This document shows positions 1,765 through 38,578 of a stretch of 64,000 nt of DNA, one piece after another (position 1 is the stretch's first letter; each line of letters opens with the position of its first letter). Position numbers and translations under genes: made by a program. Source of the DNA: Bispira polyomma. Lineage: Eukaryota. The notes below the pieces were generated by a model. That model was not told where the DNA came from and made no database searches. It was given only the letters and a program-made list of their open reading frames with translations. The stretch is taken from positions 100,440,001 through 100,504,000 of the forward strand of contig OZ287750.1 in assembly GCA_965649765.1 (NCBI GenBank). Reading direction: 5' to 3'.

Positions 1765-1771
1765 GGAAAAT

Positions 1772-6729: not shown

Positions 6730-7541
6730 TGTTACATATGGGGACATTGTGGTGTGTGGAAGAAAAACCGGTCTAGTTAGTACTAATGGTTTTACACTCT
6801 GCTGGAGTGAGCTATTTATAGATTTGGGGAAACCCCTAAGCTTCTAGAAACCGGTTCTATTTTATTTCTGAAGGTTATTAAAGTTGTATTCATATGTATA
6901 TCTCATCTCTGGAATGTCCTAGCGATTGCTTACACATTCTAGCAACCTTCTCTAGCAGTGGTATATATAAGGGTTGACAGCCTGGCCACAGAAGAGATTT
7001 AATTGAGCTGAGGTGCTATATGAATGCTATATGAACTACTATACTGTTTGTTATATACATTTTGTGGTGAACTCATTGGAGTGAACTAGATAAAAGTTGT
7101 GGATCTACCAGAGATTGGATTTACTGCATATTGGATATTGTTTGCATCCTGGACTGGATAGCTTAGTTGTGCAGATTCTCTGGATATATACATTTTGTGT
7201 GCGTGGACGCTGAACAGATAACAGGATACAGGCATTGTGTGGACATGGAGCGGATCTCAAGACAGATTGCTGGATACAGTGGACAAACTGGTTTAATTGT
7301 TATTTAAGTGGACAGGACTGTGGTCAGGTCAGATTGATTTCATTATTATATTATTGTGTGAGCTATTAAGGGTATCTCAGTTGATTGTAATTTTGTAATT
7401 TTGTAATTTTATAATTCTGTAATTCTGTAGTTGTTATTTTATTTGTTAAATAAATTTGTTAAGTGAAACTTTTTGTCTTTTCCTGTTACAACCTCAAAGC
7501 AACCGGTAATTGCTACCGCGCTTGCTCCCGTCACCGTAACA
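6730..7541 (+). repeat. 3' LTR
   Basis: 812 bp, identical by eye to 953-1764. Confidence 0.96.
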
Positions 7542-9535: not shown

Positions 9536-10727
9536 AACTAGACCTAGCGCATCGGAGTACCGATGCTTATTTGTATCCACCAGAAAGACAGAGCACCCTA
9601 GGTAGGAAGCACCCAAACTATGGCTACCCTCATCTGACCTTGAAGGAGGGGCCAAGGTCAAATCTGACCAAATCAGAAGATTCTCAGCCCATGATTATTT
9701 ATAAGTTGGTTTCACATTGGAAACCTGTAGGACCAATAATAAGCGAGTTATAAGCACTTTTAAGTTTGTCTATTGTCATTTGTCCTTGAAGGAGGGGCCC
9801 AAGATCCTGACCACATCAGAAGAGTCCTAGTCCATGATTTCCTATAGGTTGGTTTTGCATCTTAAAACTGTAGGACCAATAATAAGCGAGTTATAAGCAC
9901 TGTTATGTTTAACTACCCTCGTCTGACCTTGATGGAGGAGCCCAAGGTCAAGTCTGACCACATCAGAAGATTCCCAGCCCATGATTACCTAAAAGTTGGT
10001 TTCACAATGCAAACCTCTAGGACCATTAATAAGCAAGTTATAAGCACTTTTAAGGTTGGATACCTTATTTGACCTTGAATAAGGGGCCCAAGGTCAAACC
10101 TGACCACATCAGAAGATTCCCAGCCCATGATTTCCTATAAATAGGCTTCACATGCCAACCTCTAGGACCAATAATAAGCGAGTTTTAAGCACTTTCAAGT
10201 TTGGATACCTTGTTTGACCTTGAATTAGGGGCCCAAGGTCAAACCTGACCACATCAGAAGATTCCGAGCCCATTATTTCCTATAGGTGGGCTTCCCATGC
10301 CAAACCTCTAGGACCAATAATAAGGGAGATATAGACACTAGTTTGCTATGTGGGGTACTTTGGCACTCCGTGGACGACCTTGAATGAAGAACTTCAAGGT
10401 CAAATGTCTGCATGCTTGTGGAGGACATATATATCTGTTATACATATCACCTATGGAGAGATTTAACCTTCTAGTTATAGGAACCAGCCAGTAGAAAAAG
10501 GTGGATAATTTTCAAAGAAATGCTGATGGCGGCCATCTTGTTTTTGAGTATAAGGGTTATTTTCAGTCGCAGAAAAGCTTACCTCCCAGTGAAGATATCC
10601 TGCAAATTAGGTGAAGCTAACTGGTCTTGCTTTCCACTGAGAGTTTAACGGCGAAAATCTCTCTGCGGCGACGAGGGCGGCATAGCAAGTGCTAAACCAA
10701 AGTATCCACCAGATCGGTGGATACAAT
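9536..10727 (-). mobile_element. Non-autonomous Helentron-type element (HINE/DINE-1-like) with an internal ~146-bp tandem array
   Basis: On the minus strand the 5' end has subTIR plus inverted copy (TTGTATCCACC-gatct-GGTGGATAC). The 3' end has subTIR GGTGGATACAA, hairpin GCATCGG-tact-CCGATGC and CTAG-TTT. About five repeat units start near 9635, 9781, 9924, 10070 and 10215. Confidence 0.8.
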
Positions 10728-13424: not shown

Positions 13425-16400
13425 CTAGCGAGGACAAACTAAAAGAGAGAAAAAATAAATTAATTAATACATACACACAAAAATGACTTAAATACTTTAT
13501 AAATATTATGTTGTTCTTTAAATAGATCAGCTTTGTAAATGCATATTGTACAGCTGTTTTTAATTTAAGCAATACCACTAACCTTTCCCTGGTTTCTGAC
13601 ATAAAAGAATAATGTCCCAAATGTGATTGATGTCTTCTACAGTTAATACATTACTTGCTTTTCCACAGGCCATAATGAGTAGTTGTTTTGAGTCCACTTC
13701 TAAACCAAGTCCAATAACCAAAACCCTGTTAAAATTCAATTGGTTTTGTGGATTATATAAAATTAATCTTCAGTGAGGTCATTTTATGGATCATTTCAGT
13801 AGGACTACTCAGTGTCTTGGATTCTGACTGGTGTATCAGACTATATATCTACATAAACTATGAAATGAGAAGAACACATATAATCTATACTATAATTTAC
13901 TTATTCTATCATTTTCATCCCAAGCTATATTTGGAAATCTTTCAGTTCTTTACAATTACTTTTATTCATACATTCACGTAGCCGTGAAATATGACCTTTT
14001 GACGTGCGCCAATGAAAATGTATAGGAATTGTAGTGTAGAATTTAACCCATTTCTTTGCACAAAATATCACCAAAAATTAAACATATTATAAAATATCAA
14101 TCTAAAGCAATGTTAAAACATAAAATTCAAAGGCTGTTGATCTTCTTTCGACATATAATCTCTTTTATATACACAACCCTGGTTGTTTTACCACTATTTT
14201 AATTGTTTTACCATAAAAACTTACACCACTGCTAATTTATTTTGAGTTTTGTTATCTCAATAACTGTAAATCTGAGAATGCAACTGTAATTTTGCTATAC
14301 ATTATGATAAAAGGCCTTGTCGTAAATAAATGTTGTATACAGGTGACCTTTCTACACAGAGTCCGAGTTTTAGTAATTCATACTTACTTGCTACATCGAC
14401 ACAAGCGGTTGGAGGATGATATCAGTTTGCCCATATTTTCCATAGTCCTACTTGCTGTTATTATTATTGTCAAGGTAGGTGCCCTTTTTCTAGAAAAAAA
14501 TTGGTGCAAGATACAGTATCTTAAGTGAATTTTAGAGCTTAACTAGAATACCATGTGAAGCAGGGACTATGTACATCTATTGTGGTGAGCCACAGTAGTG
14601 AGAACAGGCATGATTATCTATGTAACCACTTATGAAAGGTGACATGCGAAGCTTCCAAAAGGAAAACACATCAGTTCAGCTGTCATTTTTGTACAGCATA
14701 CTGCTAAAGACAGTGGCCTCAAACATTACCCCAATCTGATATGTATTTAGTACACCACAGTTTTATAATAGAAAACAGATCTCCTGCCGCACTACCAGCC
14801 ATTCACATAGTGGCACCACAAAGAGGGTGACAAAAATTAGTATCACATACGCTGTCAGGTTGAATTATGACAAAAATACATTTATTAAAATGGCATACCA
14901 AAATTACAAATAACACTTCATTTTAAAAGCAACTGCTAAAAGATGCCATGTTAAGTTTTCAGTAAAATAAATATATTACTATAAAATTAAATAACATATA
15001 TTTTAAAATGTATTAGCATACTAATATCAATAGAATAGTAATATATATGTATATAAAAGTTTTATACTGAATTTGTATTTACCTGTTTGGTGGACTTCTA
15101 CAAAAAATTTTTTTAGCCTTTTTAAGAACTTTGGATAAACTACTAATTTTAGTTCCTATATATGGAACTGCCGCTATGCTACTGCCAAGATTAACATTAT
15201 TGGCTGTGCTTAGAGTTTGTAAATTCCAGTTAGACACTGCATTGTTGCCGAAGGTCATCACAGCCACCTAAAGTAATGTAAGCTTTATTAAAATGATATA
15301 TACTTTGTGTATGTGAGTGTAATGAATTAACATACCAGTGTACAGTTTGGGCAAACACAAGTAGTAATTGACTTATTTTGATTTTTTTTGAGTGAAAATT
15401 TAAGGAGTAAAAACATTAACTTAAGGCAGAACTTAACTGTCCACATACATTTAAGTAAAATGTTAAGAATATCGGTAACAAGCATTACATGTATAATGTG
15501 AACTAACTACATTTACAAACTTATGGAATGTTACTTCGAATTTGAGTGAAGTCAACAGAAAAGGTGAATTCAACCTAAAGTGAGACTTAGTAGGGCTCGT
15601 ACGTGATCAACCATAACTGGAAGGTGTTTTCACATGATTAAACCACCAAAGAGAGGATGTGTGCATTAAGATGATACTACAGATTAATCCTAGTGGAAGT
15701 TATAGATGACGAAAATAACAGAATGAGACCCACTGGGATTATACCTTATGAAAATAACAAGCAGAGGATTATACATAAATATGAAATAAACAGCCCATTG
15801 TAAAACAATAGGGAAATTCAGATTTTGGAGAGTAAAAGGGGCTTATTAAAATCAGATATTTAGGTAATAGATTGTAGAAGTTGTACTCATATTCCATGTA
15901 CAAATTAAAACATTGGTAGGTTACAGAAAGTTTAGTTATATAGCCGAAACGAAAATATTAGCACTTTCAACCCAGTACCTATATTGTCATATTCATAATA
16001 ATTAAATATTACTAAATTATTACCTGCACATTACACTTTTTAATCTTGAGGTCAGCAACCAAGTCCGACATAAACTGCTTTAGAACGATAAAGTCTATCA
16101 TGGTCATGGTGGAACTTGCATCAGAGATCAATAGGAGGTCTAATGCACCACCCAGAACTATTGTAGAAATACACAATCATAATACATTCACAAAATATTA
16201 TTGTTATATATTAGGCTGGGTCATGTACTTACTTTAACCTGTAACACATGTCACTTAAATACATAAATGCTTATATGGAGGTCATTATATGAGTAGGACT
16301 TTGATATTACTACTAAAAATCATTGTTAAAGTGTAGAAATAAATGTCAAAGCGTTAATATGTACACCGACTACTACTTTTAAATTTAAAAACGGAATGTG

Positions 16401-19400
16401 CATGTTCGAGAAGCTTGGTAAAACTTATTTTAGTCTTTTAATATGAATGACGGTACAGACACATTTATATTGTCTGCACTGCTTATATTTTTTGAAATGA
16501 CTATACATAATCTGAACTTACTGAAAAAAGCCTTTCCAAGAACACATTCATTAAAAAAACACCCATAGAGAGATGACATATAAAATTGATCTAGCAAAGA
16601 ACTGTGTAAGTTCAAAAGCTTTAACAATTTTCTTTTGTTTATTCTTATGATATATATATGCTTTTGTTGCCAGAGCAATTTCCAATAAGGTGGCATTGGT
16701 CATTCATCTGATCAAAGGCCATGACCTTGATGTCGCTCGCATGTCTGAGACATGGTTGTAAAGCAAGGACACCCTGATCTTTCCTTACTGAAACAACGCT
16801 TTCTGTCTCCAAATTGCTTTACTCCCTGGGCCTGATAGGAGCAGTGGTGGAGTTGGCTTATTTAATAAAACACCTTTTCTTGGGATGGTTTCAATGTCCA
16901 AAGCCCTTTGCATTATTCAAAAGTGTTAAATTTTCCTTCTGTATCAGCATTCGCCAAATATTTTTCAGAATTCCTAAAAACCCTCACTTATCTTAGGATT
17001 TATTTAGAGAGAAAGTAGTCAAAAATAGTGCTAATTGCCAAGTCTTATATATTTTCTTGTTCTAAAAATGAAAGAAGTCCAAATATAAAAGAATTTCAGC
17101 AGTACATCAACAAGATTTTCAATGATTTAGTTCTTCTTGCAAAAAGTAATCGCAAATATATAAACTTCTTTAGAAAGTGGTCGAGTTTTAAGCTTGTTGA
17201 TATTAATACATACCTAATTTATATGGAATACTAATATTGTTTCATTATATAAATAAGAGTACTGAATTGTTTTTTTTGTTTTTTTTTATTTATTGTTTTT
17301 TTATCACATGTGATTTTGTACACATCTTGTTTGTGCTACACTAATTGTGCATTGTAACAGTTCTGTACTTCAGAGCATCGTATTACTACTCCTTTTTTCG
17401 AGTTCAAAGAAACACGAGGGGATTATAGTAAGAGGCTATGCAATCTCTGGTGTCAAATTCAGCTTATCTGTCTTAAGTGAAATATCACTTTGTTTTTTTT
17501 TGTTCTGAGTTGCACAAGTAAAGTACAGTCTCTTAATTTGTTCAGATCAACTGGTTCGATAAGACACATGCAGTTGAGTTTATTAAGAGCAAATAGTAAC
17601 AGAACCAACAAAGATCTCTCATCATCCAATCCATAAACAAGCAAAAACCATGGCCAAGTGCAAACAACATTGGTCGAATCTGTATTCAAAAGGCATATCC
17701 TGTTAAGATATAATCGGTTTTCAATCATTTGTTTGGGTACCCATATTGGAATCATATTTGTTCATTACTAGTGCTCCCTATCTATCCTTTGAGCCCAACA
17801 AGGCGATACCTTAAATGTGTGGAGATGATCCCATGACACAGGTACCAAGGCTACACCAGCAGTATACTCAAAATCTATATATATAAATATCTGCAATTTA
17901 CTTACAATATGTCTACTGAAGTTGAAAACATTTACCGTATCTCTTTTTTGCAATATTAAAAATTAATAAATTTTCGCCTTTTTATACAGTTATTGATCAT
18001 TTTGTCTTTTTATTGGCCAATTGTCCATTTTAACCTTGCTACTATAGTATATTAGTACAATATAATTACATATCTCCTTACCTCATTTATATTGGGGGCC
18101 GCGGTGGCCTAGTCGTTAGCAAGCATTGCGCTTCACAATGACTGGTCTCTAACCTCTGGGCGGCGTGAGTTTGAATCCTGTCAATGTCTATGTGAGAAAG
18201 GTGGTAGTTCCTTACTGTGGGCCGCTGGTTTCAGTGCAGAACTTTGATCAACTGTATGCAGTGTTTCCTCCACCGTTTCCAACTACCCGTCCCAATGTAA
18301 CCTAAACATCCTTGTTTTTATTTAATTTGCTGTTAGGGCAACAGAACCCCACTCACAGCATTTGGAAACCACCACTTTTTACAAACATCCAACGTTTATA
18401 AAACCATGGATAAATGAATCCCTCAACAACCTAAACTGTGCCACCTGTTCTCTGTGCGCACAACTTCGTTACCCATTCGTTTTTATAGAAATAACAGTTT
18501 CTTTGAGTCTCTGCTACTCACCCTTGTTGGTTACATCATTTTGAACCCTGGTCCAACTAATGGAACTATTGGTCCTTCTCGATGCCAGATGAAGATAGTT
18601 GGCATCAATATTCAATCAATCCGGAACAAGGATCAATTCTTTTTCGACCTAACAGAGTCAATAAAACTTGACATTGCCTGTCTAAAACCTGGCTCACCAT
18701 CGAAGACACATTTTTTACAGAATTTACCCCAATGGTTATAAACCATTCCATCAACATAGACTTCATGGACGTGGTGGTGTTTGAATCTTTGTGAGGGATT
18801 GCTTTGCAGCTCAAGCTGTGGAAGTTCTGGCAACTATGACTTTTGAGGTTCACTCTCGAGGTTTTTTACTACTTTCACTAATTTGTTGTTGCCTTGTTGT
18901 ATCATCCTCCATGTTTTTCTAGCCGGGAGGAATTTCTGGCTGAATTCACACAATTCCTAGAGACCCTTAGTCTACTTCTAGATGAATGCCTCATCTTTGG
19001 TGATTTTAACATAAAAGTGAACATGAATGAGACCATTTTAATTCAAAAGTCAAGTGATCAACATGATTCTACAAAGAATAATAAATATTGCAAATTTACT
19101 TAGGGCTGTAATTGCCCACATACAATCACAACTGGTGGTTATTATGGATCAAGGGCAGGATAAGAAGATTACGAAAGCAAAGGGAAGCAATGAACCTACA
19201 GCTTCAGGCTCCGACAAGGGCGGCCAGAAGAGGAAGAGCAAGGCCAATGTTGTGAACAACCTGGCTCAGGGAAAGGGAGGAAGATAGACACTACACAGCG
19301 CTTGAGATCAGGATACAGAGACACACCACAAGGTACAGGAAGACACTGCCCCCTGGAATCAAGATAGCCATAACTTTGAGGCGTTTGGCTACTGGGGAGT

Positions 19401-21287
19401 CCTACACATTGTTGCAGTACTTGTTCGTAGTGGGCAAGTCAACCATGACAAAGTCTGTGCCAGAAATTTGCCAGGCCATCATCAACAAGTCTCAAGAAGA
19501 ATTCCTCACATGCCCCACCAGCCCCAACAACTGGAAGAAGGCCCTGGAGGCAATAGACAGCAAACACATTGAGATGCCCCAGCAAAGGTGGGAGCGAGTA
19601 CTTCAACTACAAGGGGTACCACTCAATTGTCATGCATGCCCAGGTGACACCTGTCAGGCCTCAGTCAACAATCCAGGTGAGGGCTGAATACGTCATGGCA
19701 GTCTTTGTTGGGGTTGCTGGGGTTGCTGGTACATGACCTGCGGTGGTTGCTGTTGAGGTACAATCTCAGGTGGAACCATCTGGTATTGCATCTGGGGTTG
19801 TGCCTGACACTGCTGATCATGCTGGCACTATGGCACTGCTTGTGGCCATCCGGTCCTGGATAGCGTTCACAAAGTTGAATGCCTCCCTTCTGAAGTGGTT
19901 GAAATGCTCATCTGGCAATATTTCGTCCTCTAAATTTTAACCAGTTGAGAAATGCCGACTTGGGTCCCTCAGCCTTGGCCTCATTAAAGAAGCCTGAGAT
20001 TGTGTCCTGCATTGTGGCCAGCGTATCACTCAGCTCACTAGAAAGTGCTGCCTCAGGATTCGCAGTTGATCTGATACAGAATAAAGACTGTTTTGAGGCA
20101 CTCCCAGGGGATACTATCAGCAAAAAAGACTCCATCTCTGTTTCAGCACGTCGGTCTATGTCTAAATGGGACCCCACCCTGGGAGGTGCTAATTCTGCTA
20201 GAGGCATGTACAAAGAGGTGGATGCGATGGGTCTGAAGCCAGCTGCTCTCGAGACATGTCGTATGATGTGAGGTTTCAAAAGGTCATAGGTGTTCTTGAC
20301 CCATTGCTGTCTGTCTGTCAAATCAGCTGGTGCCTGGCCGAACTTCCTGGTGTCCAGCTTGCCATAGATAGTACTCTGTGATTGAAACCACTTCTTCATT
20401 TCTTCCTCAGGCGGCTTCCCAAAATACGGCGCCGACCAATATGATTTGCACCCGAGTTATCTTTTGACAACCTGATGTATCATTTCACTCCCCTATCCTA
20501 TCTTTTGTTCTCCCAAGTTATCTTTTCGATCGGCTGGCACCAACGACTTACCATCTGTATGGCCCCACCTATCTTTTTAATCTAGGCTTCCCTAACGACT
20601 TATCATTTGTTTCAAAATCTATCTTTTCAATCAGAGGATCTCTTTTTGACACATGACATGATAACTAAGGGGTTGAAAGAGAACTCGTAATGGCCCCCGA
20701 CCTATCTATGTTTAGGGAAAATAAGTAAGGATGACTTTTAACATGTTTGGAAACCTCTGTGACCTCCCCAATTGGAAATGATAAGTCGTTAGAAGCCCCC
20801 AGACGTCCCGATAATTGCCCCTATCTTTTAATCGTAATGATTGGTGGCTATGATCGGCATAGTGGAACATGGGTATATACCTCAAATAACTATTAGGTAT
20901 ACACAATACACATGCTATATACCACTGGTATGCCCTTATTTCTAAATACACTTTTGGACATGTATTGCTCAAATAACTACCACATTTATATAGTACACAT
21001 GACTAATACCACTGGAAACCAATTGTGACCAATACAACTTTACCATCAACATATTTAGTGTTACCAGTTATATAGCTTAATTTAGTACAAAATATATAAA
21101 AAATTATAGTTAAATTGTTGCGCATCAGAATCGGCTACTATGTAGATTAAGTGTCTGAAGGAGTGTCTTTAGATTAGATTAAATTACATTTTTAAGAGCC
21201 ACTGTTTGACAGAGGAACATATTATTATTACACACACTTACCACTGGGAGTGCAAATCAGAGATAAAAACAGTATCATAAATTTCAT
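13425..21287 (-). CDS. Secreted single von Willebrand A-domain protein, paralog A (207 aa, 6 coding exons)
   Basis: Exons 21287-21242, 16157-16024, 15267-15083, 14489-14388, 13725-13583 and 13438-13425 are all GT-AG and phase-compatible. Protein: MKFMILFLSLICTPSVLG-GALDLLLISDASSTMTMIDFIVLKQFMSDLVADLKIKKCNVQVAVMTFG...PNRKRAPTLTIIITAS...KVLVIGLGLEVDSKQLLIMACG...CQKPGKVCPR*. This follows the vWA strand/helix pattern. Exon lengths match paralog B except exon 4 (102 vs 99 nt) and the short stop exon. Confidence 0.85.
17028..17234 (+). mobile_element. Tx1/L1-like LINE 3' fragment in intron 1 of gene A
   Basis: LIAKSYIFSC...P....F......F.RKW resembles the extreme ORF2 C-terminus of Tx1-like elements. 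Confidence 0.5.
18094..18308 (+). mobile_element. tRNA-derived SINE
   Basis: Box A-like GGTGGCCTAGTCG and box B-like GAGTTTGAATCC. The body is homologous to 34797-35045. Confidence 0.8.
18500..19040 (+). mobile_element. Degenerate L2/CR1-group APE endonuclease fragment
   Basis: GYIILNPGP...INIQSIRNK...LYHPP...CLIFGDFNI. Smaller related scraps lie near 16700-16900 and 22030-22170. Confidence 0.65.
19100..20410. mobile_element. PIF/Harbinger relic: transposase (+) and convergent Myb/SANT-like ORF (-)
   Basis: + strand TLRRLATGESY...VGKST...CQAI...AIDSKHI...FNYKGYHSIV. - strand KWFQSQSTIYGKL...LTDRQQWV...LLKPHI. Confidence 0.75.
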
Positions 21288-23189
21288 ATTTATCTCATTT
21301 CATATTTATCTCATGTTGTCTCACTGTTCTGTTGGCTGAATACTTTACACAGAGACTACTACTTTTAACAACATAATTTGCAGGTTGAGAAAGCTTATAA
21401 CACTTACAACATTCTTTTAAAATGATAGAACCACTGAGACAGTTCTATTATCTGCACCACTAATATATTTTGAAGGGACTAAGGAAAGACTAAACCTATT
21501 GAAAGCCTTTCAGAACAGAACACAAAGAAAGAAAGAAAGAAAGAAAGAACGCAAGAAATCAAACACAGAATGAGCAGGTTAAGCTTAATACATCTTTTAT
21601 TCTTTAAAAGTATTGATTGCAGTGAGACATGTTTATTGTTTGCAGTTATACCTTTTGAAAGAACAACACACAGTCTGAACTTATCCTTTTTAAAAACACA
21701 TTAATCAAACAAAAACAACCACAGAGAAATGACGTATGTACCATCCCCATTTCAAAGAATATAGCTTTGCAGACACTTTGATTCATTAAACAGGCGTATG
21801 AGTAACAAAGCAATCAATCATTGTCTAAAGTGTGTGACCACAAACTCAAAAGCTTCAGCAATTTGTTTTATTTATTTTCATGATCTATTAAAACTAGAGT
21901 CAGTTGAGTGAAATCAATGTAATATAATGGAAATTGTTGTGATAGAGTGACTGTTATCTTCAGCTTGTTGTTTAATTAAATGTTTCATAGCACAACATTG
22001 CTTCAATTTGACAACATTAAAAAATCATTAGCCCTGGTCTTCTCTCAACCAAAAACAAAATTGGTGCTTTTAATGCCAGATCAATTCGCCATAAGATGCC
22101 ATCAGTCATTTATCTGATTGAAACCCATGACCTTGATGTGACTTTCATATCTGATACATTGTGGTGAATCAAGGACATTTCAAAGCCAAGAAAGAATCAC
22201 TCCAGTTATAAAACTCAATGCATAGAATACTCTACCGTACTTCAAGGTTTGTCTGATAGTTACTGTCTCACAATATATGGCTTTTCAACAATGTCTCATT
22301 GTGCCCACCATCTATGGGTTACAAAGTTTCTAATCTATCAAATACTGTGAACCAGATCCTATCCCTGTCATTGTTCTGATGGAATGTCTCGTTCTGATAA
22401 CTCCTATTACCAATATTATTAAATATTAAAAGGGATAGTATTGGATTATATTTTACAGATGAAATTATCGTATAATCCTATAAAATATTGAAGTTCATTT
22501 GATGACATATTTTACTACATATTATTGGGTAAACTTCAAAATAATGGTTTTGAGCTTTAACAAAATGGAATATGTTATTGCAGATGGAGCCAGGTGGAGC
22601 AATATCATATTCAAGAACGAAATGATAGGTTTCATGACTGGCTAAGTGAAAGAGTGTAGTACTATTTTGGTTTAAAAATAAAAGTGGGCAGAGCTTATAT
22701 CTAAAAATTGGTAAACCACAGATGCGAGATAAACCAACAGACAGAAATGACAACTTGGCAGTACAGAATATAACAAAATGTGACTGAAGGGAACCGTGGA
22801 CAGAGCTATAATCCCAATAATATTATAGTTCCGATACTGTACTGAACATTATTTCACAGCTAACGAAAAATGGGCGAAAAATGGCCATTGAAAAAAAAAA
22901 GACATCCAGTAAACCACAGTCGTTAGTTAAGGTACTGAGGAGAAATTTCTAATAAAACAAAAAAAAATGGTGCATTGAGTTTTGAATATGTGGTGGCAGT
23001 GAGTCTTTTAAAGGCAGTTTAAGTGTAATATATCAATTCAATCCTTTGATCGACTTTTTTGCATATATGTTTACTATTCACACAGTTTTTTTTTTTTTTT
23101 TATTAATAAATCTCCAATTAAAAGTCTAAAACAGTAGGGTTCATTTGATAGAGCTTATTATTAGGACACACATTACATTGAGCTTGCCA

Positions 23190-24750
23190 CTTTTGTCTAA
23201 GAAACATTATTTACATTGACTTTCAAGTCTGTTAAGGAGACTTTCAAGTCTAAAGCATTAAAATTCAAAGCCTTTTTGGCAAGCTCATCTGTCTTTTTAT
23301 TGCTCATGTTAACATGACTTGGAACCCATGCTAAAATAACTTTCTTATTCACGAACAAACAATTATTAAACAATTTTAAAATATCCTTTAAAAGCGGATG
23401 GTCATACTTGTTTTCATCCAGTGCTTAGAGACTAGATTAAAAGAAATTTAATATGATTAAACAATTACCATTGCAATTTTTTCAGTTATTGACTGTAGTA
23501 CTACTTTGTTTGCCACATATTTTCCTAACCATTTCCCAAACTTTTTAATGTTTAGTTTAGAAATACATTTTTGTTTTATTTTCCTTTATTGTCATTTTCT
23601 GTATACATCAATATCAGACACACATGTTTTAAAATGGTGGGCAAATAGTCACCTGGGCATAGTAGTCACTTGGGTTCAGCTGGATGTTTTGCTTTTGAAA
23701 AAAATTGCCATTTGATTTTTTGTTTCAGTAACACTTTATTCTTAGTTACAGGAGAACCTCCACAATAAAAACATATTGCACTAGTCTGACAGTTGCTGGA
23801 GTCAGTATTTTTGCCACATCTTGCACATATTGCTTCTCTTTTGCATGACCAAATTTCTGGCAATGAAAGCATCTTATTAGGTTCGAAATGTAAATCATGA
23901 CGGGAACACGTATATGACCCAATTTATTGTGTTTAGGCAAACTTTGTCCGTTGAAAGTGAGAATGAAAGTATCAGTCATTTTTAATCATCATGTGTAATC
24001 AGTATTCTTCTAGAATCTCATCATCGAGAGAGTTCTTTATTTCAGGGCATTGTATCACTACTTTTCTCAATTTCAATAAAATATGAGGGGATGTAGTACC
24101 AGGATGTACAATCTCCCTTAATGTCTTCATTAAAAGCTCAGACCAAAGCAATAGATGGCACTTTAAAGGTCGTAACGAGACAAAAACACTTACTAGGAAT
24201 ATCACTTCCACCGACACGGTTCGCAACCCATGGCCAACTGTTTGACCCACTTAGTCAACTCTTACAACACACTGGAGTGCTTTCCTTATGGCAATGTACC
24301 ACTTGGTCATTTATAAAAGCACTGCTCACTTTTATTCATTAACGAGGAGTGTACCACACTCCTTGCCTTTTCCATTCATAAAATCTGCAGTTCTAGATAT
24401 ATATCTAGAACGAGTGAACAACCATGGCCCAACTTCTGGCACAAATGCGATAATTAGTGTCAAACTAAATTTTAATAATCAAGTAATTAGACAATTTCGA
24501 AATATGAACAGAGTATCACCCTATAAATTGCAAGAGAAGTGAGTGAAAATGCTGTTTAAGGCCCCAAAATAACTAAAATATTATTGCAGATTTGTGGTGC
24601 ACAAATGATATCATTTATAGTGATACCAAAATATAATTTTTGATTTTCTTTCCTACTTTCGTACATGCCTCCAAGAGACCTGATAAAGCCATCCATGATT
24701 GATTATACACCAAGGAACTGGACTAAAAATATGCAATATATCCATAATAT
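23190..24750 (-). mobile_element. Internally deleted Nimb/I-group LINE
   Basis: ORF1 TDTFILTFNGQSLP...IRCFHCQKFGH...ICARCG...CFYCGG, followed closely by an RNase H scrap KVILAWVPSHVNMSNKKTDELAKKA. Confidence 0.7.
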
Positions 24751-25546
24751 AACATCAGCACCAAACTACACCTAAAATTCTTCCTCACTATAGAGACATG
24801 TACACAACATAGCACAGAATTTCCACTTCAGTATTACAGAATAACCAGAATAGACATAGTGAGTCATTAAAACCTACAAAAAGCTCAATATTTGAACAAG
24901 AAATATGCAGCCTTAGGCCGTGTACCAGAGTTTGCTATCTGAATGCATGAAAAATACATCGGCAAAATGTTTGGTAAAAAACAGGTCGAAATGTCTAGAC
25001 TAGTATTGTCTCGAAAGCTTGCCGTTACACCCTAAAAATGGGTGGAAATTTCTGGTAGGTCAAAATGTCTGGTATTCCTTCAAAATCTTTAAAGCTAGGC
25101 TGTGTAAAGCAAGGAAGAAATGACTTCTATCGCCCAACTTTCTCATAAGGTCTTACTGCATCTTTTGAAGTAAAATTCTAAAATATAAGCAATTGTTTGC
25201 AAATCATGTGTTTGTTGTAGTGAGCACCTGTGTGGCAGCATAACTGTGAAAAAACTACTAAAAATAACAGTAATTTTTGTAAAAATGGATATGATAAATG
25301 ATATACAAAACGGTGATGCTTTTTTCTGTTAAAAATTAGGATTAACTGTTGGGATATTTGAAATATAAAATCTGAATAAATTTCACGAAAAGGTTGAAAG
25401 GTTGTGCATAATAATACAACATCTAATCACTTGATTACTTTCAAGCTAGAAATAAAGTAAGTGTTTGTTTTAGGAACAATTGTCAAAATCACAGTGAAAC
25501 CTTTCCACAAAACGTCATCAACTGATTACCCTGAAATCTTTTCATC

Positions 25547-28500
25547 ATGAAATCAACAATTGGTGTTATGTATTCTGTGTGTGTGTTTTTTACAACAAAG
25601 TCTTTTTGTATAAACAATAGTTCAACAAGGAACTGTCATTATAAAAGGTCTGAATTGTTAACTATCAGGGGCCATAACAAGTCTGTCAGACTTGAAAATG
25701 ATGTCTACAAACTTGTAAATGAACTGTCTTTAAACAATAGAAGGCCAACCAAGCGAGGCTCCAGGGGTGGACAAAAGTCTGAGACCAACATTTGTTTATT
25801 GAATGCACAATCAGTCAGAAATAGGACAGATGACTTACATGATTGCTTTCTGGAACAGAAAATTGATTTATGTGCTGTGGTTGAAACTTGACTCAAGGAA
25901 CATGATGAAATGACAGTCAAAAATTTAACTCCAGAAGGTTATGTAATATTCCATCGTGATAGGAAAGAGAAACCAGGTGGTGGTGTAGCAGTGTTTTGTA
26001 AGACTGGGTTTAGAGCTAAATTGGATGAATTACAAGTTTATACCTCGTTTGAATATGTTTCTGTTGTCTTGAAGTCCCTGGATATGCGTGTGTGTGTTGT
26101 TTACAGACCTCCTTCTATTACTAGAGTTTCAAATGATAAATTCTTTGACGACATTGCAGAATTATTTGTAGTACTCGTTTCTAACAAAAAAAGACTATTA
26201 GTACTTGGTGACATTAAGTTGAACAAAAATGATGATCCCCATGTTATGAAGTTCAACACACTGTTGCAAAAATTTTCCCTTCAGCAACATGTTACATCGC
26301 TTCACTTGCACATCTATGAACACCCTTGACTTGGTTATAACGAGATGCAATGATGAATTTTTAATGTCAGAACCGAAAGCCAAACACTTCATTTCAGATC
26401 ATACTTCTATTATATGTCATCTTAAATTTTGCAAGACAAAATTGGAGTCTAGAGAGTTTTGCTACAGGAAGAAAAAGAACATCGACTTATCATCTTTTAA
26501 GAAAGATATTTCAGAATGAGATATTGTGAAAAAGACAGGGAAGGATCTTGGAAATTTAGTCAAACTATATAATGAAACCTTAGCTGAGATCTTAAATAAA
26601 CATACGCCTTTAAAAAGGTGTAAGCCAAAAATGAGAAGATCACAACCTTGGTACAAAAAAAGAGTGAAGGAAAGTAAGCGAGAAATGTGGTTTGATGAGA
26701 GAAAATGGAGAAAATCAGAATAACTGTACCTTATTCAGTTCAAATCGATGCATCTATATGAAAACTCTGAGAAAATCGAAAATTAATCATTTCAGCTCTA
26801 TTGTAAAGGAAAATGGGATGGATCAAAAGCAGTTGTTTAAGATAGTGAAAGGTCTGTGTAAATCCACTAAGGAATCACCATTACCTGAACATAATTCAAA
26901 GAAAGAACTAGCAGAAAACTTTGGTCAGTATTTCATGGATAAAATAGACAAAGTGGAGATATTTTTGGAACATCAGAGGGTTTTGACAAGTATGATACTA
27001 GAGATAGGCCAATACCAGAGCTGTCACAATTTACACCAGTATCTAATGAAGAAGTTGAAAAAATAGTCTTGAAGTTCCCTATTCAAGTCATGCATGCTAG
27101 ATCCAATTTCTATCTCACTTCTGAAGGAATGTAAATCTGAATTGATACCAGTCATTACAAAAATAGTGAATCTCTCCATTAAAACAAGTGAAATGCCGAG
27201 TGACTTCAAACATGCTATAATCACTCCACTCTTAAAACAACAAAGTGCTCACCCTACTTACAACAACTTTCATCCTGTATCTGGATTGCCTTTCTTATCT
27301 AAGGTCATTGAGAAGGTGATTTCCCAGCAAGTTGGTCAACATGTCAACAGCAGTGATTTAAATGAACCACATCAGTCAGTGTATAGAATCAATCACAGTA
27401 CAAAAACTGCATTATTAAAAATAATGAATGACTTATTGCAGGACACAGACAATAAAAATGTGGTATTGATGGCTTTTCTTGACCTATGTGCAGCCTTTGA
27501 TATGGTTGATCACAGTATGCTTTTGTCAAGATTGCAATCAATGTTTGAAGTTAAAGGAGCAGCGCTCTCATGGTTTAGGTCATACTTGACTCAAAGAACA
27601 CAGTCAGTCAAGATTGGTTGTGTTTTGTCTGAGAAGAGAATATTAACATGATGTGTCCCTCAAGGCTCTGAACTCGGCCCTCAACTGTATTGTGACTATA
27701 CAACACCACCAGGGTCTATTTTCAGACATTTCCTTATTCAATTCCACATGTATGCAGATGATTCTCAATTGTACAAGTCAATATTACCAACTCATGAAGA
27801 CCAAATTTCTGGGATACTGCATCAACAGAATTGTATAACAGAGATTAGCGACTGGATGATCAGGAACAAATTAAAAATATATGAGGATAAAACTTTTTGG
27901 TTGTTGGAACATCCAAGCAGCGCGTCATTATTGTGTGTAATTCTCTCAGAATTGCTGAGGCTGAAATACCAACCAGTCACTGTGTTAAAAACCTAGGAGT
28001 TATCATTGATGAAGATCTGTCATTTAATGATCATATCACTTACATTTGTAGGTCTTGCTACTGCTATCTCAGGAACATTCGTACTATTCGACCATATCTT
28101 ACTGTTCGATCAGCTAAAGCAATAGTTCATGCAGTCATCTCCGCAAAACTAGACTACTGTAACTCCCTCTACATTGAAATTCCAGAGTTTCTTATTGCAA
28201 AACTGCAACGTGTTCAAAATACAGCTGCCAGGATAATTTTGAATCTGAGAAAGTTTGACTCAATAATGCCTGCTCTTATAAAACAGCATTGGTTACCTGT
28301 AAGGCAGCGGATTATCAACAAAGTGAACTTAATTGTTTTTAAAACATTAAACAATGATGCTCCAGACTACATTCAGTCCTTGCTCTTTGTTTACCAACCT
28401 GCAAGACCCCTGCGATCTAGTGACAAAGCCTACAACCTGAATGAACATAAATGGAAACTGAAAAGCAAGGGATACCGTTCTTTTCTAGTTGCCCCACCCC

Positions 28501-28678
28501 TCTACTGGAACAGTTTACCTGATGATATACGTAACATCAAACTGAATCTTAATGACTTCAAGGAAAAACTTAAAACTTAGCTGTCTAAAAGTGTTTTACA
28601 TTAGAGTTAGCACATTGATTTTTCACATAGTGACTAAAATTGCGCTCTACAAGATCTAATTATTATATTATTATATTT
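25547..28678 (+). mobile_element. L2-clade LINE, near-complete ORF2 with frameshifts and stops
   Basis: APE endonuclease (LLNAQSV, VETx, GGGVA, VYRPP, LGD, SDH), RT (FLDLCAAFDMVDH, PQGSELGP, MYADDSQLY), C-terminal DYCNSL/HWLP, and tail gcgctctacaagatctaattattatattattata. Confidence 0.88.
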
Positions 28679-30393
28679 GACAGTTGCTGAAATCAACCTT
28701 TACCAAAACTGACGTCATGCTTCAAAACAATACCTATATGTGTGTGTCATGGCAAGTTAAAACGAGGTATACGATATATATATACTCTAAAATCTGTGAA
28801 GATAAAATTAAAATAAACTAAATAGTTTGTGACTATTAAGGTGATATAGTATAGATATTATCATAATTCAGTTTGGATTTTTAATTTTTAATACTCCCAT
28901 ATTCATCATTTTTATAGAATGTGATATTTAGTTTCTGAACCCACAAATCCCAGACCTGCTACGCACACGTGCATTGACAACACCCAGATCTTCAGCCAAT
29001 CCCATCATGCCTAAGATAAAATTATAGTGGTCGCCATATTTGATCATTGTTTACAACAATTTATAGATTGGTCAATAGATATCGTTGTCACAGACCGTTG
29101 TAATATTATTTTACAGCTATAAACTACAATTTCGAAAGCTACTGGGACAATATTGAATCTTATGAAAAGCCCAATATTCGCTGATTAGTTATTGAAATCG
29201 ACCCAAAAAAAATCTCGGAGCACAAGAGCCCAAAGTCTATACTCATTGCGAATTTGAGATCATTCCTACCAGTTCTGAAAGGTACTTGTTCCTATCTAAG
29301 ATATCAGAACTTAAGTAATAGAACCCAATGGTTGTGCATGCGCAAACGTCTGGTTAAAAAGTACTCTAGCCATCATGACAAAAATCGGTCTACCCCATCC
29401 CAAAAAATACATGTACCAAATATGTAGCAAAACTTCCAAAGATTTGCCTGTCACCATGTGTTGCTAAGGGGGACTGATCCACAGAATTTCTTTCAGGTAA
29501 AATGGACATAATGGAAAAAAAAACCATTTATATTATTGAATGGAACAAAACACAGCTTTTAGAAAAAACATAAAAGTTACTGGATTTGGATGAACAAAAA
29601 TTCAAAATTTGCCCATATTTTGTAAGTAACCACAACTAATCTTTTTGTTGTCTGAAGGCTCTGATTTATATTTATATTACTATTTTTGGCATTTGTAAAA
29701 AATTCAAGAATCTCTACTGTGCTAAGCTTATCAATTCAAAATAATTAATAATTTGTCACCCAATATAATTGACATAATAGGTTGTAACACATACCGTTCA
29801 ACTTTTACTTCACAACTAGGCTATTTACTGTTACTTAATGGCGGACTATATATATATTACAGCAAATGCACTACAAAAGTAAACCAACTAAATTCAAATC
29901 CACATTGATTATTTTTAAATACAAATAAAAGGGGAAATAATATTTCCAATATACATATAAAATACGAATATTTATTGCTTCAAATCAAAGTAAACTGTAC
30001 CTGAACATTAATGCAAAAGTGGTGGTATATAATAAATGCACACCCTATCTTTAATGTGACCATGACCTACAATTTGATTCAGCAACAGAATAAATAATTC
30101 AGTAATATATAAATATTGTATCATAGGATTCCTACCTAGATACTTCCCATATTATTAAATAAAATTTGTAACTTTCTGATCTGTGTTGCTCTAATGACTA
30201 TACAAAATATATAGAAAATATACGTAGATTGTGGGGCCTTAGAATCTGCTGCTTTGTAGATAGATTATTTGCCTGAAGAAGTCTCATTAGATTTGATTTA
30301 CCATTCCAAAAGCAACTGCTACACAGAGGTACATATAGTTATTACTGTTATTTGTTCAATTGGTCTAAGGCAAAATAACAACAAAAAACTTAC

Positions 30394-30439
30394 CGTTGGA
30401 TGCGCAAAGCAGAGCTATAAACACTATCATAGATTTCAT
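30394..30439 (-). CDS. Third copy of the signal-peptide exon (MKSMIVFIALLCASN), downstream partner uncertain
   Basis: 46-nt phase-1 exon with a GTAAGT donor, the same length as exon 1 of both vWA genes. The flanking intron and upstream sequence are homologous to 21190-21370 and 63830-63970. Confidence 0.65.
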
Positions 30440-33400
30440 TATGATCTTACTTGGTGATGAGAACTGTTTCTCTTGCTGTCCTGTTATCTGAATACTGTAC
30501 AGAGACTACTGCTACTACCACTTTTAAATTTTAAAATAGCATGCTCATGTTAAGGAAGTTTATTAATATTTCTTTTACTCTCTTAATAATTGATGGCACT
30601 GAGACATTTCTATTGTTTCCACTACTTGCATCATTTGAAAGGCCTGCACACATCGAATATATGTAGCAAAGACAACCTATTAATAAACATGACATATGAT
30701 ACATCTGAATTTAAAATAATACAAGGAAATGAATACATTCTGAAAAGCTTTAGCAACTTTCTTAAGATCACTTGTTAAACATTAAATTTTTTCACCATTG
30801 TTTTGTGCTGAAGCTTCGAAACATAGTCGATTCCCGAGAATACATGTTTGGTTCTATTAATAACTTGACACTGTGATTCAGTAATATTATCGCAGAGGGA
30901 TATACAACCAACCTCTATATATTACTTGAATGGGTCAGTGACATGCAAAGCAACTGCTCACAGCAATTCACAGGTCATATTATGTGTGAATTCATGCGCA
31001 CTACTTCATCTTGAGATGAAAAATAATTCACAAATTTATTAATGTCTTCTTACCAATATATGCTGAGATAAAGATTACATTTACAATTTGGAGTGGTTGT
31101 AAACTACATTTTACTGCCAAGGTAATGTTAACCTAATGTTACACGTCAACAATTTTGTGTTTTTAATATTTTATTGCAACTTAAGAATATCGTGCAAAGC
31201 TGGATGATTTACATGAATAGTCAACTTAAAAGATTTACATTACAACTACAGAGAAGATTTTTAATTATCAACAGAAAAAAAGCTGGAGATATGTAGATAT
31301 AATAGTAAATTACAGAGTGCTACAGAGTAATTTCCTTATGATAAACGAAACTAAAAATATGATAACGTTACAACAGTGTTGTCAGGTTTATATCCAGTGC
31401 ACTATAAGCCATATAATTAGTAAGAGTTTAGTTATGTTTTGGTTTAAAGCAACGTTCAACACGTCTTGTGTCATATCATGACTGGTAGTACACCATAGGA
31501 GTAAGTCCGATCATTGTGCTGTGCTTTTCAAAACAGTTGCCTTCAGTCAGTCTGCTGCCAACCTTCCCACATTTATGAAAGGGCAGATATTAAAAGGGAA
31601 GCAAGTGTGTTACAACTACACAACTGATACTAAAAGTCCACAATTATACCCAAAACAGATAGCATATGCCAAAGCTAATACACATAAGCACAATGCGAGT
31701 TATTTTGATAAATAGCACTTTATGAGAGAGAAATTACAAAAAGTGGGGCATTGTTTGAAAAAAGACAATGAGCCTTTTGCCTGTGATAGATGCATCTGTA
31801 TGATAATGTATTGTACCCAAAAAGAATATTAGACTGGTATTTTTTACATGTTCAAACATTTACAAAAACGTCTCTATTAAAACGTTTTCACAATTAACTA
31901 TGCACTTTGTTACAAAATTTTCTTCTCAAATTTTAATTAGTAATTTTTTTTTCAGATAATATTGCTTAAATACTTCCCACAGAAAATAAAAGTCATGCGA
32001 TTGGTCCAAACACAAATGATGAATCCTTTAGCTTAGAATTATGTATCTTAATAATAATTTTTTCATGGCCATATACATAAGTGTAGTCCGTTTATGTGTA
32101 ACATGAATTTGTACATATATTTGCTAATATACAAGTATTGTGTCTTCCAGCATTTAAATAAGATGAGTCATTAGTATTTCATTTAGTTTTAAAAAGTAAC
32201 TATGGCTTGAAAGCAACTGTAAGCTGTAAGCTTCACGGTGTAAGAAAGTATTAACAGTTCTGTCAGAGTGAGCATGTTTGTCAACTGATTAAGTGGATAA
32301 CATGTTTTCTATTAGTTTTGGTATACCTAAGCTACAATGTTCTGAATTATATATAAAGATATGTGTGATTTATTCCTTTATTGTAGTCAGTCGTAATGTC
32401 AAGTTATATATATAGGTATAAGTGTGTTATCGCTTTAATGTAATCAGTTGTAATGTCAGACTTTGGTCATTTGCCCTGATGCAACTGACATAGTCCTAAG
32501 AATAACAGTTCATTCCTTTTTCCATATGTAAGTTTTATTATAGTTACCGCTGTTTCTTTGTTCAACTTTCTTGTTGCTGTGTTTTACTTTGAGTGCAGGT
32601 AACCATGACACTATGGACGTTGGAGAAAGGATAACTGATATTGGAGTACATAAAGGACCTAAAAACTGCAAACGGACATGGCAACAGTATAAACAAGTTA
32701 GACAGCAGTCAGAGATCACAAAACATCACCCGGAATTTTAATCAAGGACTCGCAAATTGGCGATTAGGGTTAATGTATGGAGTAAGGTGTAGTTTACTTT
32801 TAAATATGAAGTTAGGGTTATTGTGTTGAATATACACACCATTTTTATTTAATTTTTGGAAGAGGAATGTAACCAAAAAACATCTTCAAAGTTAAAGATT
32901 TATGGCCACAATGTATTCCTGAAATACTTCACAATCTAGCACTAATGGTAGCGTACATCTCTGATGTAATATATGAAGTATATCTACCAGAAATGGCCCA
33001 TTTTACGGCTATAAAAATGGTGTATATATTTAACAAAATGACCATAACCTCATATTTTGAAGTAGCATACGCTTTGCAACAAAATGAGCCGTTTCTGGCT
33101 GATATAGTCCATATATTAACACCCAATATGACGTCACAATCTAGCACTAAGTAGTGAACATCCCAATGTAATATATGGAGTATATCAGCCAGAAACGGCC
33201 CATTTGATTGCCAGTACGGTGTACTTTATTTTAAAATATAAAGTAAGGGTTATTATGTTGAATATATACACCAACGTGATATAAAAAAAACTTCAATTTT
33301 GCTTGTAAAGGTTTTCTAATGGTCAAAGTCCTGTTATATTACGAGATCCTGGGATCAACAAATGCCCCAACATGGACATGAAACAACACACATTTAGCCT

Positions 33401-36890: not shown

Positions 36891-37036
36891 CTGCAAATAG
36901 TAGTGTGCATCCCGAATTAATATAGATGGAGTATATCAGCCAGAAACGACCCATTTTATTGCATGTAAGGTGTACTTTACTTTAAAAAATGGTTATTATG
37001 TTGAATAAACACCCTATTTCTATTTAAATTTTCAAA

Positions 37037-37629
37037 GAGCTTTAAGTCATGGTAGCGTGGATTTAAGTTTTACCTTTCTCCCAAGGCATGGAAGATAATA
37101 AGATACTTATTTCATGTTTATATCAAAGCCAATATTTACAACTAACGGTTGAGTCAAATATTTTAGCGAAGTTCAGTAAATTGCTTTTTTCCAAAAAATA
37201 GCAATTATTAAAGCAAATATATATCTAGGACCCGACGTCTATGATATTGATGGGGGGAAGTGAATCACTTGTATATGAGCGACAATGGAAGAATTTGATG
37301 CAAATTAGGGAATCTATCATCGTTAGGAGCACCCGAAAACACCAACTTCCATATACGGATATTTAACTGTCTCTGACATTTGACTTGGCAATAATAGCCA
37401 ACATATATTACCTTATATCTACACATTTGTTAGTTATATTTGAGGACCCGATAAATCAATATAAAAAATCATCCGCAGATTTAACAGTTAATTGATGTAA
37501 TTTACTAAAATATGAACTTATATAACGTACACATAATTTAAGCAAAATGTTATTGGTCGTGGCTTAAATTTTTTTGATGCCGTGGAAGAAAGGTAAAACT
37601 TTAATCGAGGCTACCGTGACTTAAAGCTC
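37037..37629. mobile_element. MITE with ~55-bp imperfect TIRs and GAG...CTC ends
   Basis: Left end gagctttaagtcatggtagcgtggatttaagttttacctttctcccaaggcat; reverse complement of right end gagctttaagtcacggtagcctcgattaaagttttacctttcttccacggcat. Superfamily not determined. Confidence 0.8.
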
Positions 37630-38578
37630 TTCGAATTTTTAGAAATATCTACTTATCTTATTTACTTTTTGTGTTGATGAGGTTATGATGACGTCAACAT
37701 ATTTCATATACATCCCTGATCTGATAGTCAGTGTAGCTAGTAGTGTCTTCGGTGTTCGCTGTTTTTAAATGATCCTAGATCTCAGAGTCAGTGTAGCTTC
37801 AGTTTGCTGAAGGTTGTCTATGTTTTTTACATATGGCACAGAAAGTAAACCGATCCTCAGTGTTAGTTTTGTATGTAAAAAAGTAAACGTTGTGTTAAAG
37901 CTAGTTTCACAACCGATTTGTATAAGATTTGGCAGAAATGTAGAGGTCCCCATTTTGAAACATATCTGTAAATTTTAATGCATTTGATAAAGTAGATTTT
38001 GTGTAATTATGCTTTGAACACACAAGCACACAGACCCAAAGGGCGAGGTTAATGATGTTCTAAAGCTTCTACCATAAAATACAATTTGGATTGTCTGCTC
38101 ATTTCCATTTGTAAAGATTTTCCCTGCACTTTAACACTGGATTTAAGATTTTGTATTAACTTTGATAAAACAGTTTGTCGAAATCTTTAATAGTAACAGT
38201 TTATATCCTGTTATATTATTCCAAAGAAATGACAGAACAAATTGTCATGCCTTTCCAAAATGTAAGAAGGAGTGAAAAGTACTTTTGAAGAGTAATGACA
38301 CTTGGGGTATTAAGAATGTTAATTTGCTTTTCAGGAACAAGTATTTGCTAGATGAAATCTGCAACATGCTCTTACCTTTTTCAATTGTAGGACTGAACTT
38401 AATTCTTTCTCCATGTTTTGAAAGGCCCAGTGTTGCTTTTTTTAGGTTTTCTGGGAGCCTTTTGTTATGTTTTTTTATCTATTTCCACCCGAAGAAATAA
38501 TTTTAGTCTTTTCTAAATTCACAGTTGAGCCTGAAATCAGATATTTATTGAATGATACTCTGGGTAACTGAATGAATA

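Follow-up and report, generated by a model that had tools for sequence, protein, structure and literature searches.

A tandem cluster of single-VWA-domain genes

The window, a stretch of 64,000 nucleotides from contig OZ287750.1 of Bispira polyomma, lies in a cluster of tandem genes with a single VWA domain. One type of first exon occurs there in five close copies, one of which, called 1a-A, is the main subject here; genome-wide, all five of the five matches to its promoter and signal-peptide cassette fall inside the cluster, the searches detecting close copies only. A sixth promoter block, at 16651-16369, has no exon. The genes and their first exons are as follows.

13425..16157, minus strand: body of gene A, encoding a single VWA domain (exons 16157-16024, 15267-15083, 14489-14388, 13725-13583 and 13438 to the stop)
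16369..16651, minus strand: remnant of gene A's own promoter, 80% identical to the gene C promoter
21242..21287, minus strand: proximal first exon 1b-A, open, with a GTAAGT donor
23339..29349, no strand: 6-kb insertion specific to block A, missing from the colinear block B, with high contig depth
30394..30439, minus strand: coding part of the distal first exon 1a-A (46 nt, phase 1, 15 codons, signal-peptide-like n- and h-region; donor at 30393)
58252..61755, minus strand: body of gene B, the paralog that follows the sister block downstream
63924..63969, minus strand: proximal first exon of gene B (1b-B), with a clean leader and a strong donor
69848-69803 in window coordinates, just outside the window, minus strand: distal first exon of block B (1a-B, the sister of 1a-A), 8 kb upstream of gene B

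The first-pass annotation called 1a-A an orphan, which the sister upstream of gene B contradicts (89% over 357 nt). Because that sister stands ahead of gene B, the layout with two first exons is older than the duplication of the block; blocks A and B now differ by about 13-15%. Changes in 1a-B include loss of the start-proximal Lys and of the second Met, a G to T change at donor position -1, and an insertion 70 nt into the intron.

Pfam model PF00092, applied to single exons of gene A and its paralogs, matched 5 of 10 (exons 2, 3 and 5) with weak to passing scores; gene B exon 2 alone exceeded the curated cut-off, and gene A exon 2 reached just E=0.025. Exons 2, 3 and 5 of the family correspond to profile positions 1-37, 39-98 and 134-172, and for gene B exon 2 there are matches to chains of vWF and to collagen VI alpha-3 (E 1e-16) as well. 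The family proteins consist of a stand-alone VWA domain of about 190 aa, basic and fast-evolving. A complete MIDAS metal site reads DxSxS...T...D; genes A and B lack the full motif, gene A having DASST and gene B DASSK, with the later Asp missing. A complete MIDAS is not known to be required for the VWA fold. Compared with the collagen VI and von Willebrand factor A domains of PF00092, the family is a lone VWA domain with an incomplete metal-site motif. An alignment of five exon-3 translations retrieved four unnamed fragments, each a single-member cluster, and no homologue among longer proteins, while the Atlas gave generic VWA clusters below 0.9 only; neither search returned a named close relative. 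Among the papers listed in literature searches none describes this vWA cluster, which does not prove it unpublished.

Gene A and its proximal first exon

The body of gene A is open across 192 codons, with a simulated neutral survival of 0.011 at the age of the block (0.13 if its own exon was lost recently, at 3% divergence). Being intact despite that low value, gene A must have a first exon to use, yet the one it once had is deleted: the exon expected after the promoter remnant is absent, with the profile match ending before it and the alignment in agreement. With either 1a-A or 1b-A as first exon the frame is open and encodes 207 aa.

The leader of 1b-A carries three upstream ATGs (at -27, -16 and -11), which arose from a 16-nt tandem duplication and occur in 1b-A alone among the seven first exons examined. 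Contigs from all three DNA runs match 20956-21426 without differences. The 1b-A/1b-B pair has a dN/dS of 0.2 (gene E rows, with exon 5 out of frame, are left out of the dN/dS table), and its branches, 0.152 vs 0.093, are not significantly asymmetric (p=0.14). A role for the 1b exon as an in-frame internal exon was rejected, none of the AGs within 260 nt being usable.

The vWA genes had also been credited with a donor just after the stop. The site found there in genes A, B and C (CAG/GTTGCA or similar) scores -2.0, below every one of 17 true donors tested (lowest 1.3). Since this site is too weak and an AATAAA follows it at a common position in the three genes, exon 6 reads as terminal.

Anatomy and origin of the distal first exon

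Three further features surround 1a-A.

30440..30660, minus strand: promoter-like block and 5' leader of 1a-A, paralogous to the blocks preceding all other first exons
29981..30393, minus strand: what is left of the ancestral intron 1, its 5' part (blastn of 29981-30268 against gene C intron 1, 65%)
30001..30066, minus strand: intron-1 sequence proposed as an exon at first pass, with an AATAAA after it at 29976

The exon has the anatomy originally ascribed to it, namely an ATG at 30439, a length of 46 nt in phase 1, a hydrophobic core, a Cys, and an ACG/GTAAGT donor at 30393. Blocks A and B have four first-exon donors, of which this one scores highest, at 12.3, on a scoring matrix that includes these sites. 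Signal peptides combine a basic n-region and a hydrophobic core with small residues at -3 and -1; the best 8-residue hydropathy of the signal-peptide-like stretch is 3.49, and the predicted cleavage site falls in exon 2. In a leader scan, the 75 nt preceding the start proved free of upstream ATGs. A TATA-like TTTAAAAG lies at about 30527 in the block 30440..30660, a putative promoter. The upstream motif reported earlier, TTAAAAG..TAGT..TCTCTGT, was recovered at about 30527-30499 and at 21368-21349, and its sharing is plain paralogy of whole promoter blocks. Relative to the paralog C exon, 1a-A has eight nonsynonymous changes and one synonymous change. Retention of the intron after 1a-A was dismissed, with a stop arriving 9 codons beyond the exon.

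Likeness to gene C intron 1 stops in the alignment at about 29981, presumably the deletion junction of a lost gene body. As had been noted, no vWA exons separate 1a-A from gene A: the minus strand over 30394-16200 contains no remnant of exons 2-6 by DNA profiles or tblastn, and the same profiles do detect decayed exons 52 and 61 kb past the left edge of the window. The profile search for a decayed vWA body behind 1a-A gave just one match, on the wrong strand, at E=4. The cluster has debris elsewhere too: a first exon and exon 2, both decayed, at -52 kb, gene C with its frameshift, and the exonless promoter at 16.4 kb.

The insertion in block A would sit within the predicted intron between 1a-A and gene A. 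It contains, on the plus strand at about 25500-28600, a broken LINE-like element with broken endonuclease/reverse-transcriptase-like frames. Three sequencing runs cover the introns and repeats of the region as DNA does, and among the joints listed for them none falls at 30393.

Unequal rates since the block duplication

By maximum likelihood over 307 sites, with block limits picked after inspection of the data, distant outgroups, and a model without rate variation among sites, the branch leading to the 1a-A copy measures 0.013 and that of the sister 0.092 (likelihood ratio test, p=0.0027). Leaving out each of the four outgroups in turn gave p=0.0008-0.005. Broken down along the block, the contrast is 0.000 vs 0.130 for the coding part plus donor (p=0.009), 0.011 vs 0.075 for the upstream 160 nt, 30660-30501 (p=0.056), and 0.073 vs 0.093 for the leader (p=0.78), while the adjacent intron, used as control, is symmetric (0.065 vs 0.087, p=0.50). 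Apparent constraint that ends at the donor is what would be expected if the remainder of the product is encoded elsewhere. Five of the six coding differences between 1a-A and 1a-B arose in the sister. A parsimony count gives 9 changes in the 1a-A copy and 20 in the sister (p=0.06), counts for core vs control give Fisher p=0.18-0.29, and core identity is 90% vs 85-87% in the flanks (binomial p=0.016). These rates suggest that 1a-B drifted neutrally and that the copy in the window has barely changed since duplication. Simulated neutral copies stay intact at a frequency of 0.27-0.56, and the exon of the drifting sister is also intact.

Probable use of the distal first exon

We regard 1a-A as the 5' end left over from a tandem vWA paralog now missing its body; it probably provides gene A with an upstream promoter and first exon. 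Two spliced products had been written out for it at first pass, one joining exon 2 of gene A at 16157 and the other a nearby micropeptide exon; both translate as stated, and the reading with the most support is the splice to 16157. The predicted splice, from 30393 to 16157, would span an intron of 14,236 nt and supply gene A with a signal peptide for secretion; in the intervening sequence, 55 AGs score equal to or above the 16157 acceptor on a crude matrix. An ancestral block with two first exons, 1a and 1b, ahead of one body would have been duplicated. Constraint would then have persisted on the distal exon of block A, whose proximal exon acquired upstream ATGs, and drift would have affected the distal exon of block B, whose proximal exon remained clean. 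Expression would then follow ordinary alternative-promoter use, each cap-proximal first exon splicing to the common exon 2. With cleavage predicted within exon 2, both first exons would lead to an identical mature protein, and only expression would differ. 1a-A may even be the main first exon of gene A rather than a spare. Given that 1b-A is open with a good donor, that the 1b pair has a dN/dS of 0.2 and that its branch asymmetry is not significant, gene A is not strictly dependent on 1a-A, and the reciprocal part of this scheme is half shown. Moreover, 1b-B, presumably used, is not slow, so slowness is no general sign of use in this cluster.

The first-pass annotation had set an origin as the remnant of a deleted paralog against any use of the exon. 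The origin holds, by paralogy, the intron-1 piece and the lack of a body, but it is compatible with splicing to gene A and does not refute it. Promoter and exon might nevertheless be inert debris, either silent or a source of nothing but short, unstable transcripts, with gene A using the exon at 21287. We consider this unlikely, though it deserves weight: the cluster contains other debris, 1b-A is open, intactness could be due to chance at the frequencies given above, and the parsimony asymmetry is only marginal. Against it stand the likelihood ratio test, robust to removal of each outgroup, with its symmetric adjacent control, and the upstream ATGs in 1b-A. Alternatively, the block could act on the 21.3-kb promoter, whether as an enhancer or as a promoter that is itself non-productive, and yield spliced product in small amounts or not at all. 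Slow change in the upstream 160 nt would suit such a role, but constraint seems strongest in the coding exon and donor and is not seen in the leader, a pattern that splicing and translation fit better, and we hold a purely regulatory role to be improbable.

The remaining proposal, a reusable secretion cassette driving unrelated cargo, fared poorly; the genome-wide search for close copies found none of the cassette outside this cluster, and the supposed cargo is collinear with gene C intron 1, evolves at a neutral rate, comes after a weak acceptor and has not stayed the same in the sister. It would have 1a-A splice to the AG at 30066, or to the stronger ones at 30197 and 30190 (7-9 bits in both copies), with the AATAAA at 29976 as the end and a short secreted peptide, encoded by exonised intron, as the product. 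In its favour, the frame is open for 19 codons, the AG and 41 surrounding nt are identical in the sister, and the AATAAA, 30 nt past the stop and just beyond the inferred deletion junction, is retained there; background DNA offers the combination of acceptor, ORF and AATAAA at 0.2 per kb, and an AG/GT directly after the stop at 0.04 per kb. On the other side, the 30066 acceptor scores 2.5 bits on the crude matrix (rank 16 of 54 AGs), under all 29 family acceptors (3.5-11.2), and the collinear gene C intron already has the "donor" GT. The proposed exon does not exceed what chance provides: in the first kb, 24 of 54 AGs yield a phase-1 ORF of at least 15 aa, and background DNA has about four sites per kb whose acceptor equals or betters this one and whose frame runs to at least 19 codons. 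The exon differs from the sister at 7 of 47 aligned sites, five of the changes being on the 1a-A lineage; the sister has Tyr for Cys, four consecutive codons differ by amino-acid-changing substitutions, and a 21-nt deletion takes out the stop and GT. Of 109 AGs common to both copies, 29 give ORFs of at least 12 aa in both, among which the proposed one (0.56 identity) is unremarkable. A second 41-nt identical run is present in the same intron alignment, and the cargo region is neutral on both lineages while the signal exon appears constrained. A micropeptide gene is thus very improbable; equally remote is the scenario in which deletion of the body set the poly(A) signal at 29976 beside the retained intron and so created a young two-exon secreted-micropeptide gene, possibly alongside splicing to gene A.

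Comparison with known systems

Adoption of a first exon is a known kind of event, and no new mechanism is implied. In the account given in PMC3228551, Drosophila silver has multiple promoters with homologous initial exons, annotated from transcripts, and such exons may instead belong to tandem gene duplicates. The likeness to that account is close, with two initial exons similar in length, phase and sequence ahead of one common body and the same ambiguity between duplicate and alternative; unlike silver, the use of the exons is predicted here, and the extra exon comes from a body-less paralog, as the retained intron-1 piece indicates. Chimeric duplicates arising from adjacent genes in tandem arrays are described in Katju 2012 (PMC3449122). 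Like those described there, gene A combines a body and promoter remnant that group with gene C and usable first exons from a B-like block, but its parts are all of one family, with no new domain combination and only promoter and signal peptide changed. Chelicerate sDscam and the clustered protocadherins, as presented in PMC4835542, have 2-40 tandem 5' cassettes with their own promoters and variable domains; here, too, tandem 5' units with their own promoters are predicted to splice to common downstream exons, but the two units encode a signal peptide only and would leave the mature protein unchanged. The notothenioid antifreeze glycoprotein derived from trypsinogen, to which, as summarised in PMC3449122, the gene of a secreted protein contributed its exon 1 and intron 1 for a new secreted product, is a precedent for the micropeptide proposal. 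Its cargo, however, was amplified and has a known function, whereas the cargo here shows no constraint and no conservation in the sister.

If the splice from 1a-A to gene A is real, the locus would be a tidy, datable case of a gene in a tandem family swapping promoter and signal peptide by way of a dead neighbour's front end, with hints of two duplicate blocks keeping different first exons. For annotation, it would mean that the nearest first exon may not be one in use. The small, basic, secreted-type single-VWA proteins, which lack named relatives, may be a more interesting object than the exon.

The vWA cluster and its first exons

The exon that the first-pass annotation called an orphan, here 1a-A, lies in a tandem cluster of vWA-domain genes. 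Within the 1.04-Gb eukaryotic assembly we examined the window (G000:C3:100440001-100504000) together with 90 kb of left and 140 kb of right flank; every gene discussed is on the minus strand, and the cluster has eight bodies: those of genes F, C, B, A, D, E and G plus a decayed body at -52 kb. Genes A and B have two first exons each, and D, E, G, C and F one each.

Gene bodies and close copies of the first exon (window coordinates)
107-101 kb, minus: gene F body
80244, minus: gene C first exon
79.7-77.3 kb, minus: gene C body, frameshifted in exons 2 and 3
69848, minus: 1a-B, distal first exon ahead of gene B, sister of 1a-A
63969, minus: 1b-B, proximal first exon ahead of gene B
30439, minus: 1a-A, distal first exon ahead of gene A
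21287, minus: 1b-A, proximal first exon ahead of gene A

These five first-exon copies were all that a genome-wide motif search and, separately, a DNA search with 700 nt returned, both being sensitive to close copies only. Family members on two more contigs (C10:2.70-2.78 Mb and C14:21.85-21.86 Mb), some containing stops, showed no match to the 1a/1b first-exon type. VWA Pfam matches were spread along the domain in five of ten family exons scanned, one above the cut-off, and family exons also match collagen VI or vWF chains. The gene C first exon is intact in the assembly sequence (gene 80244-77263), with frameshifts in exon 2 (135 nt) and exon 3 (183 nt), and a decayed paralog (about -52000 to -61200) retains remnants of the first exon, exon 2 and exon 4. 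The gene G first exon (-69060) has a GC donor.

Exons of genes A and B (13583-16157 and 58395-61755) are 64-76% identical and introns 77%, with dN/dS of 0.87; exon identity no higher than that of introns reflects fast protein evolution in a family without a named relative. Immune, adhesive or gamete-recognition roles are a matter of speculation. The 3' ends of B and C (57910-58278 and 76957-77332) are 87% identical, against about 70-77% for the bodies, which suggests conversion or unequal crossover.

Anatomy and origin of 1a-A

The exon (30439-30394) has the anatomy first ascribed to it: 46 nt, or 15 codons plus one base, then GTAAGT at 30393, with the claimed motif upstream. Joined to gene A exon 2 at 16157, it leaves the frame open for 207 aa. 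The earlier statement that no vWA exons intervene also held, as the minus strand from 1a-A to gene A yielded nothing to DNA profiles of exons 2-6 that do pick up decayed exons farther away (-52 kb and -61 kb). A competing donor-like site (CAA/GTAAGA, score 8.9) occurs at 30450, 11 nt upstream of the ATG, and transcripts spliced from it would lack the signal peptide.

Two duplicated segments, block A (20876-32512) and block B (63524-72963), are colinear at 85-90% identity over aligned sites, and in the tree 1a-A pairs with 1a-B and 1b-A with 1b-B; two first exons were thus in place, and the body following 1a already lost, before the block duplicated. Sequence 3' of 1a-A tracks gene C intron 1 until about 29981 and then diverges, with the same breakpoint in both copies, indicating that 1a-A is the 5' end left over from a paralog that lost its body by deletion. 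Later insertions are 6 kb in block A (29349-23339) and 1.7 kb in block B, 70 nt into the 1a-B intron, with a 57-nt duplication. Gene A retains its own promoter (16651-16369, 80% identical to that of C), and its own first exon is absent, so it must borrow one.

From the sequence, 1a-A is probably a first exon of gene A. As the cap-proximal exon it would splice over 14,236 nt to gene A exon 2, giving an unchanged mature VWA protein from a different promoter. Anatomy, frame, paralogy, the missing body, the missing own exon and a rate asymmetry are observed; transcription, splicing, secretion and a handicap of 1b-A are inferred. 1a-A is a genuine feature of an ordinary kind; the modest surprise is that the exon named an orphan may be the one on which gene A relies. 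Its predicted use resembles multiple promoters with homologous initial exons, as outlined in PMC3228551, and its origin the chimeric duplicate in a tandem array sketched in PMC3449122. The tandem 5' cassettes of sDscam, as summarized in PMC4835542, share the layout but are larger and domain-coding.

Rates of change and alternative explanations

Intactness of 1a-A alone says little about use, as 0.27-0.56 of simulated neutral copies remain intact at this age. Maximum likelihood branch lengths over 307 sites were 0.013 for 1a-A and 0.092 for 1a-B (likelihood ratio test p=0.0027, and 0.0008-0.005 when each of four paralogous outgroups was dropped in turn), in a comparison whose block limits were picked after inspection and whose outgroups are distant. 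In the adjacent control intron the two sides were similar (0.065 and 0.087, p=0.50), so 1a-B appears to evolve at the neutral rate and 1a-A does not. Parsimony pointed the same way less strongly, with 9 changes for 1a-A against 20 for 1a-B (p=0.06; control 15 against 17), the core-control contrast not being significant. An inert remnant of a deleted paralog is a possible but doubtful reading of 1a-A; its background is the account of mussel CRP-I (PMC10138031), in which signal peptides are conserved across arrays that mix genes with pseudogenes. The gene A body survived in about 1% of neutral simulation runs at block age, and in 13% if its own exon was lost recently. A regulatory remnant is quite unlikely. 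Slow change in the upstream 160 nt (branches of 0.011 and 0.075 for 1a-A and 1a-B, p=0.056) speaks for it, but the contrast is strongest in the coding part plus donor (0.000 and 0.130, p=0.009) and the leader rates do not differ (p=0.78), a pattern more in keeping with a spliced, translated exon.

The first-pass annotation also proposed splicing to 30066 to make a micropeptide, and the short product translates as written. The supposed cargo exon, however, is collinear with gene C intron 1, where the putative donor GT is also found, and the acceptor (2.5 bits) falls below all 29 family acceptors (3.5-11.2, leave-one-out). It ranks 16th among the 54 AGs of the first kilobase, 24 of which give frames of at least 15 aa; in 70 kb of background DNA, comparable pairings of acceptor and frame number 4 per kb. 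Over this stretch 1a-B retains the AG, replaces Cys by Tyr, has amino-acid changes in four consecutive codons and loses stop and GT to a 21-nt deletion. Frames of at least 12 aa in both blocks follow 29 of 109 shared AGs, 30066 being an average one. The vWA genes offer no parallel for a donor after the stop, since their sites there score -2.0 and are followed by a shared AATAAA, which marks the exon as terminal. Splicing of 1a-A to some nearby AG as a short secreted-peptide gene is very improbable even with an AATAAA at 29976 shared with the 1a-B copy (0.2 per kb in background DNA), an AG/GT after the stop (0.04 per kb, spotted after the fact) and strong AGs at 30197 and 30190, better acceptor candidates than 30066; constraint is seen on the signal exon and on none of the candidate cargos, so selection more likely acts on the gene A product.

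The nearer first exon

Alone among seven first exons examined, 1b-A has upstream ATGs, three within 27 nt of the start, which arose by a 16-nt tandem duplication in the leader (21314-21288); contigs in all three DNA runs support this leader. A 35-nt deletion follows the donor at +11. Short upstream frames generally reduce main-frame translation, with distance-dependent reinitiation, according to PMC10275272; by analogy they would handicap 1b-A, assuming a transcription start placed by a TATA-like motif only. A clean reciprocal sorting of first exons is weakened by the open 1b-A frame, the dN/dS of 0.2 and non-significant branch asymmetry (p=0.14) of the 1b pair, and the eight nonsynonymous changes to one synonymous between 1a-A and the gene C first exon.

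Repeats

An apparently recent LTR-retroelement-like insertion (952-7542) has 100% identical 814-nt direct repeats (952-1765 and 6729-7542) enclosing a 1572-codon frame. Arrays of a 143-147-nt repeat at 9600-10555 and 60500-61430, one of them in gene B intron 2, have a flank in common, and a further array lies in reverse orientation at about 83.0-83.9 kb. Nested inverted repeats (32780-33270 and 36900-37640) bracket 4 kb in which the retroelement-like frames are broken.
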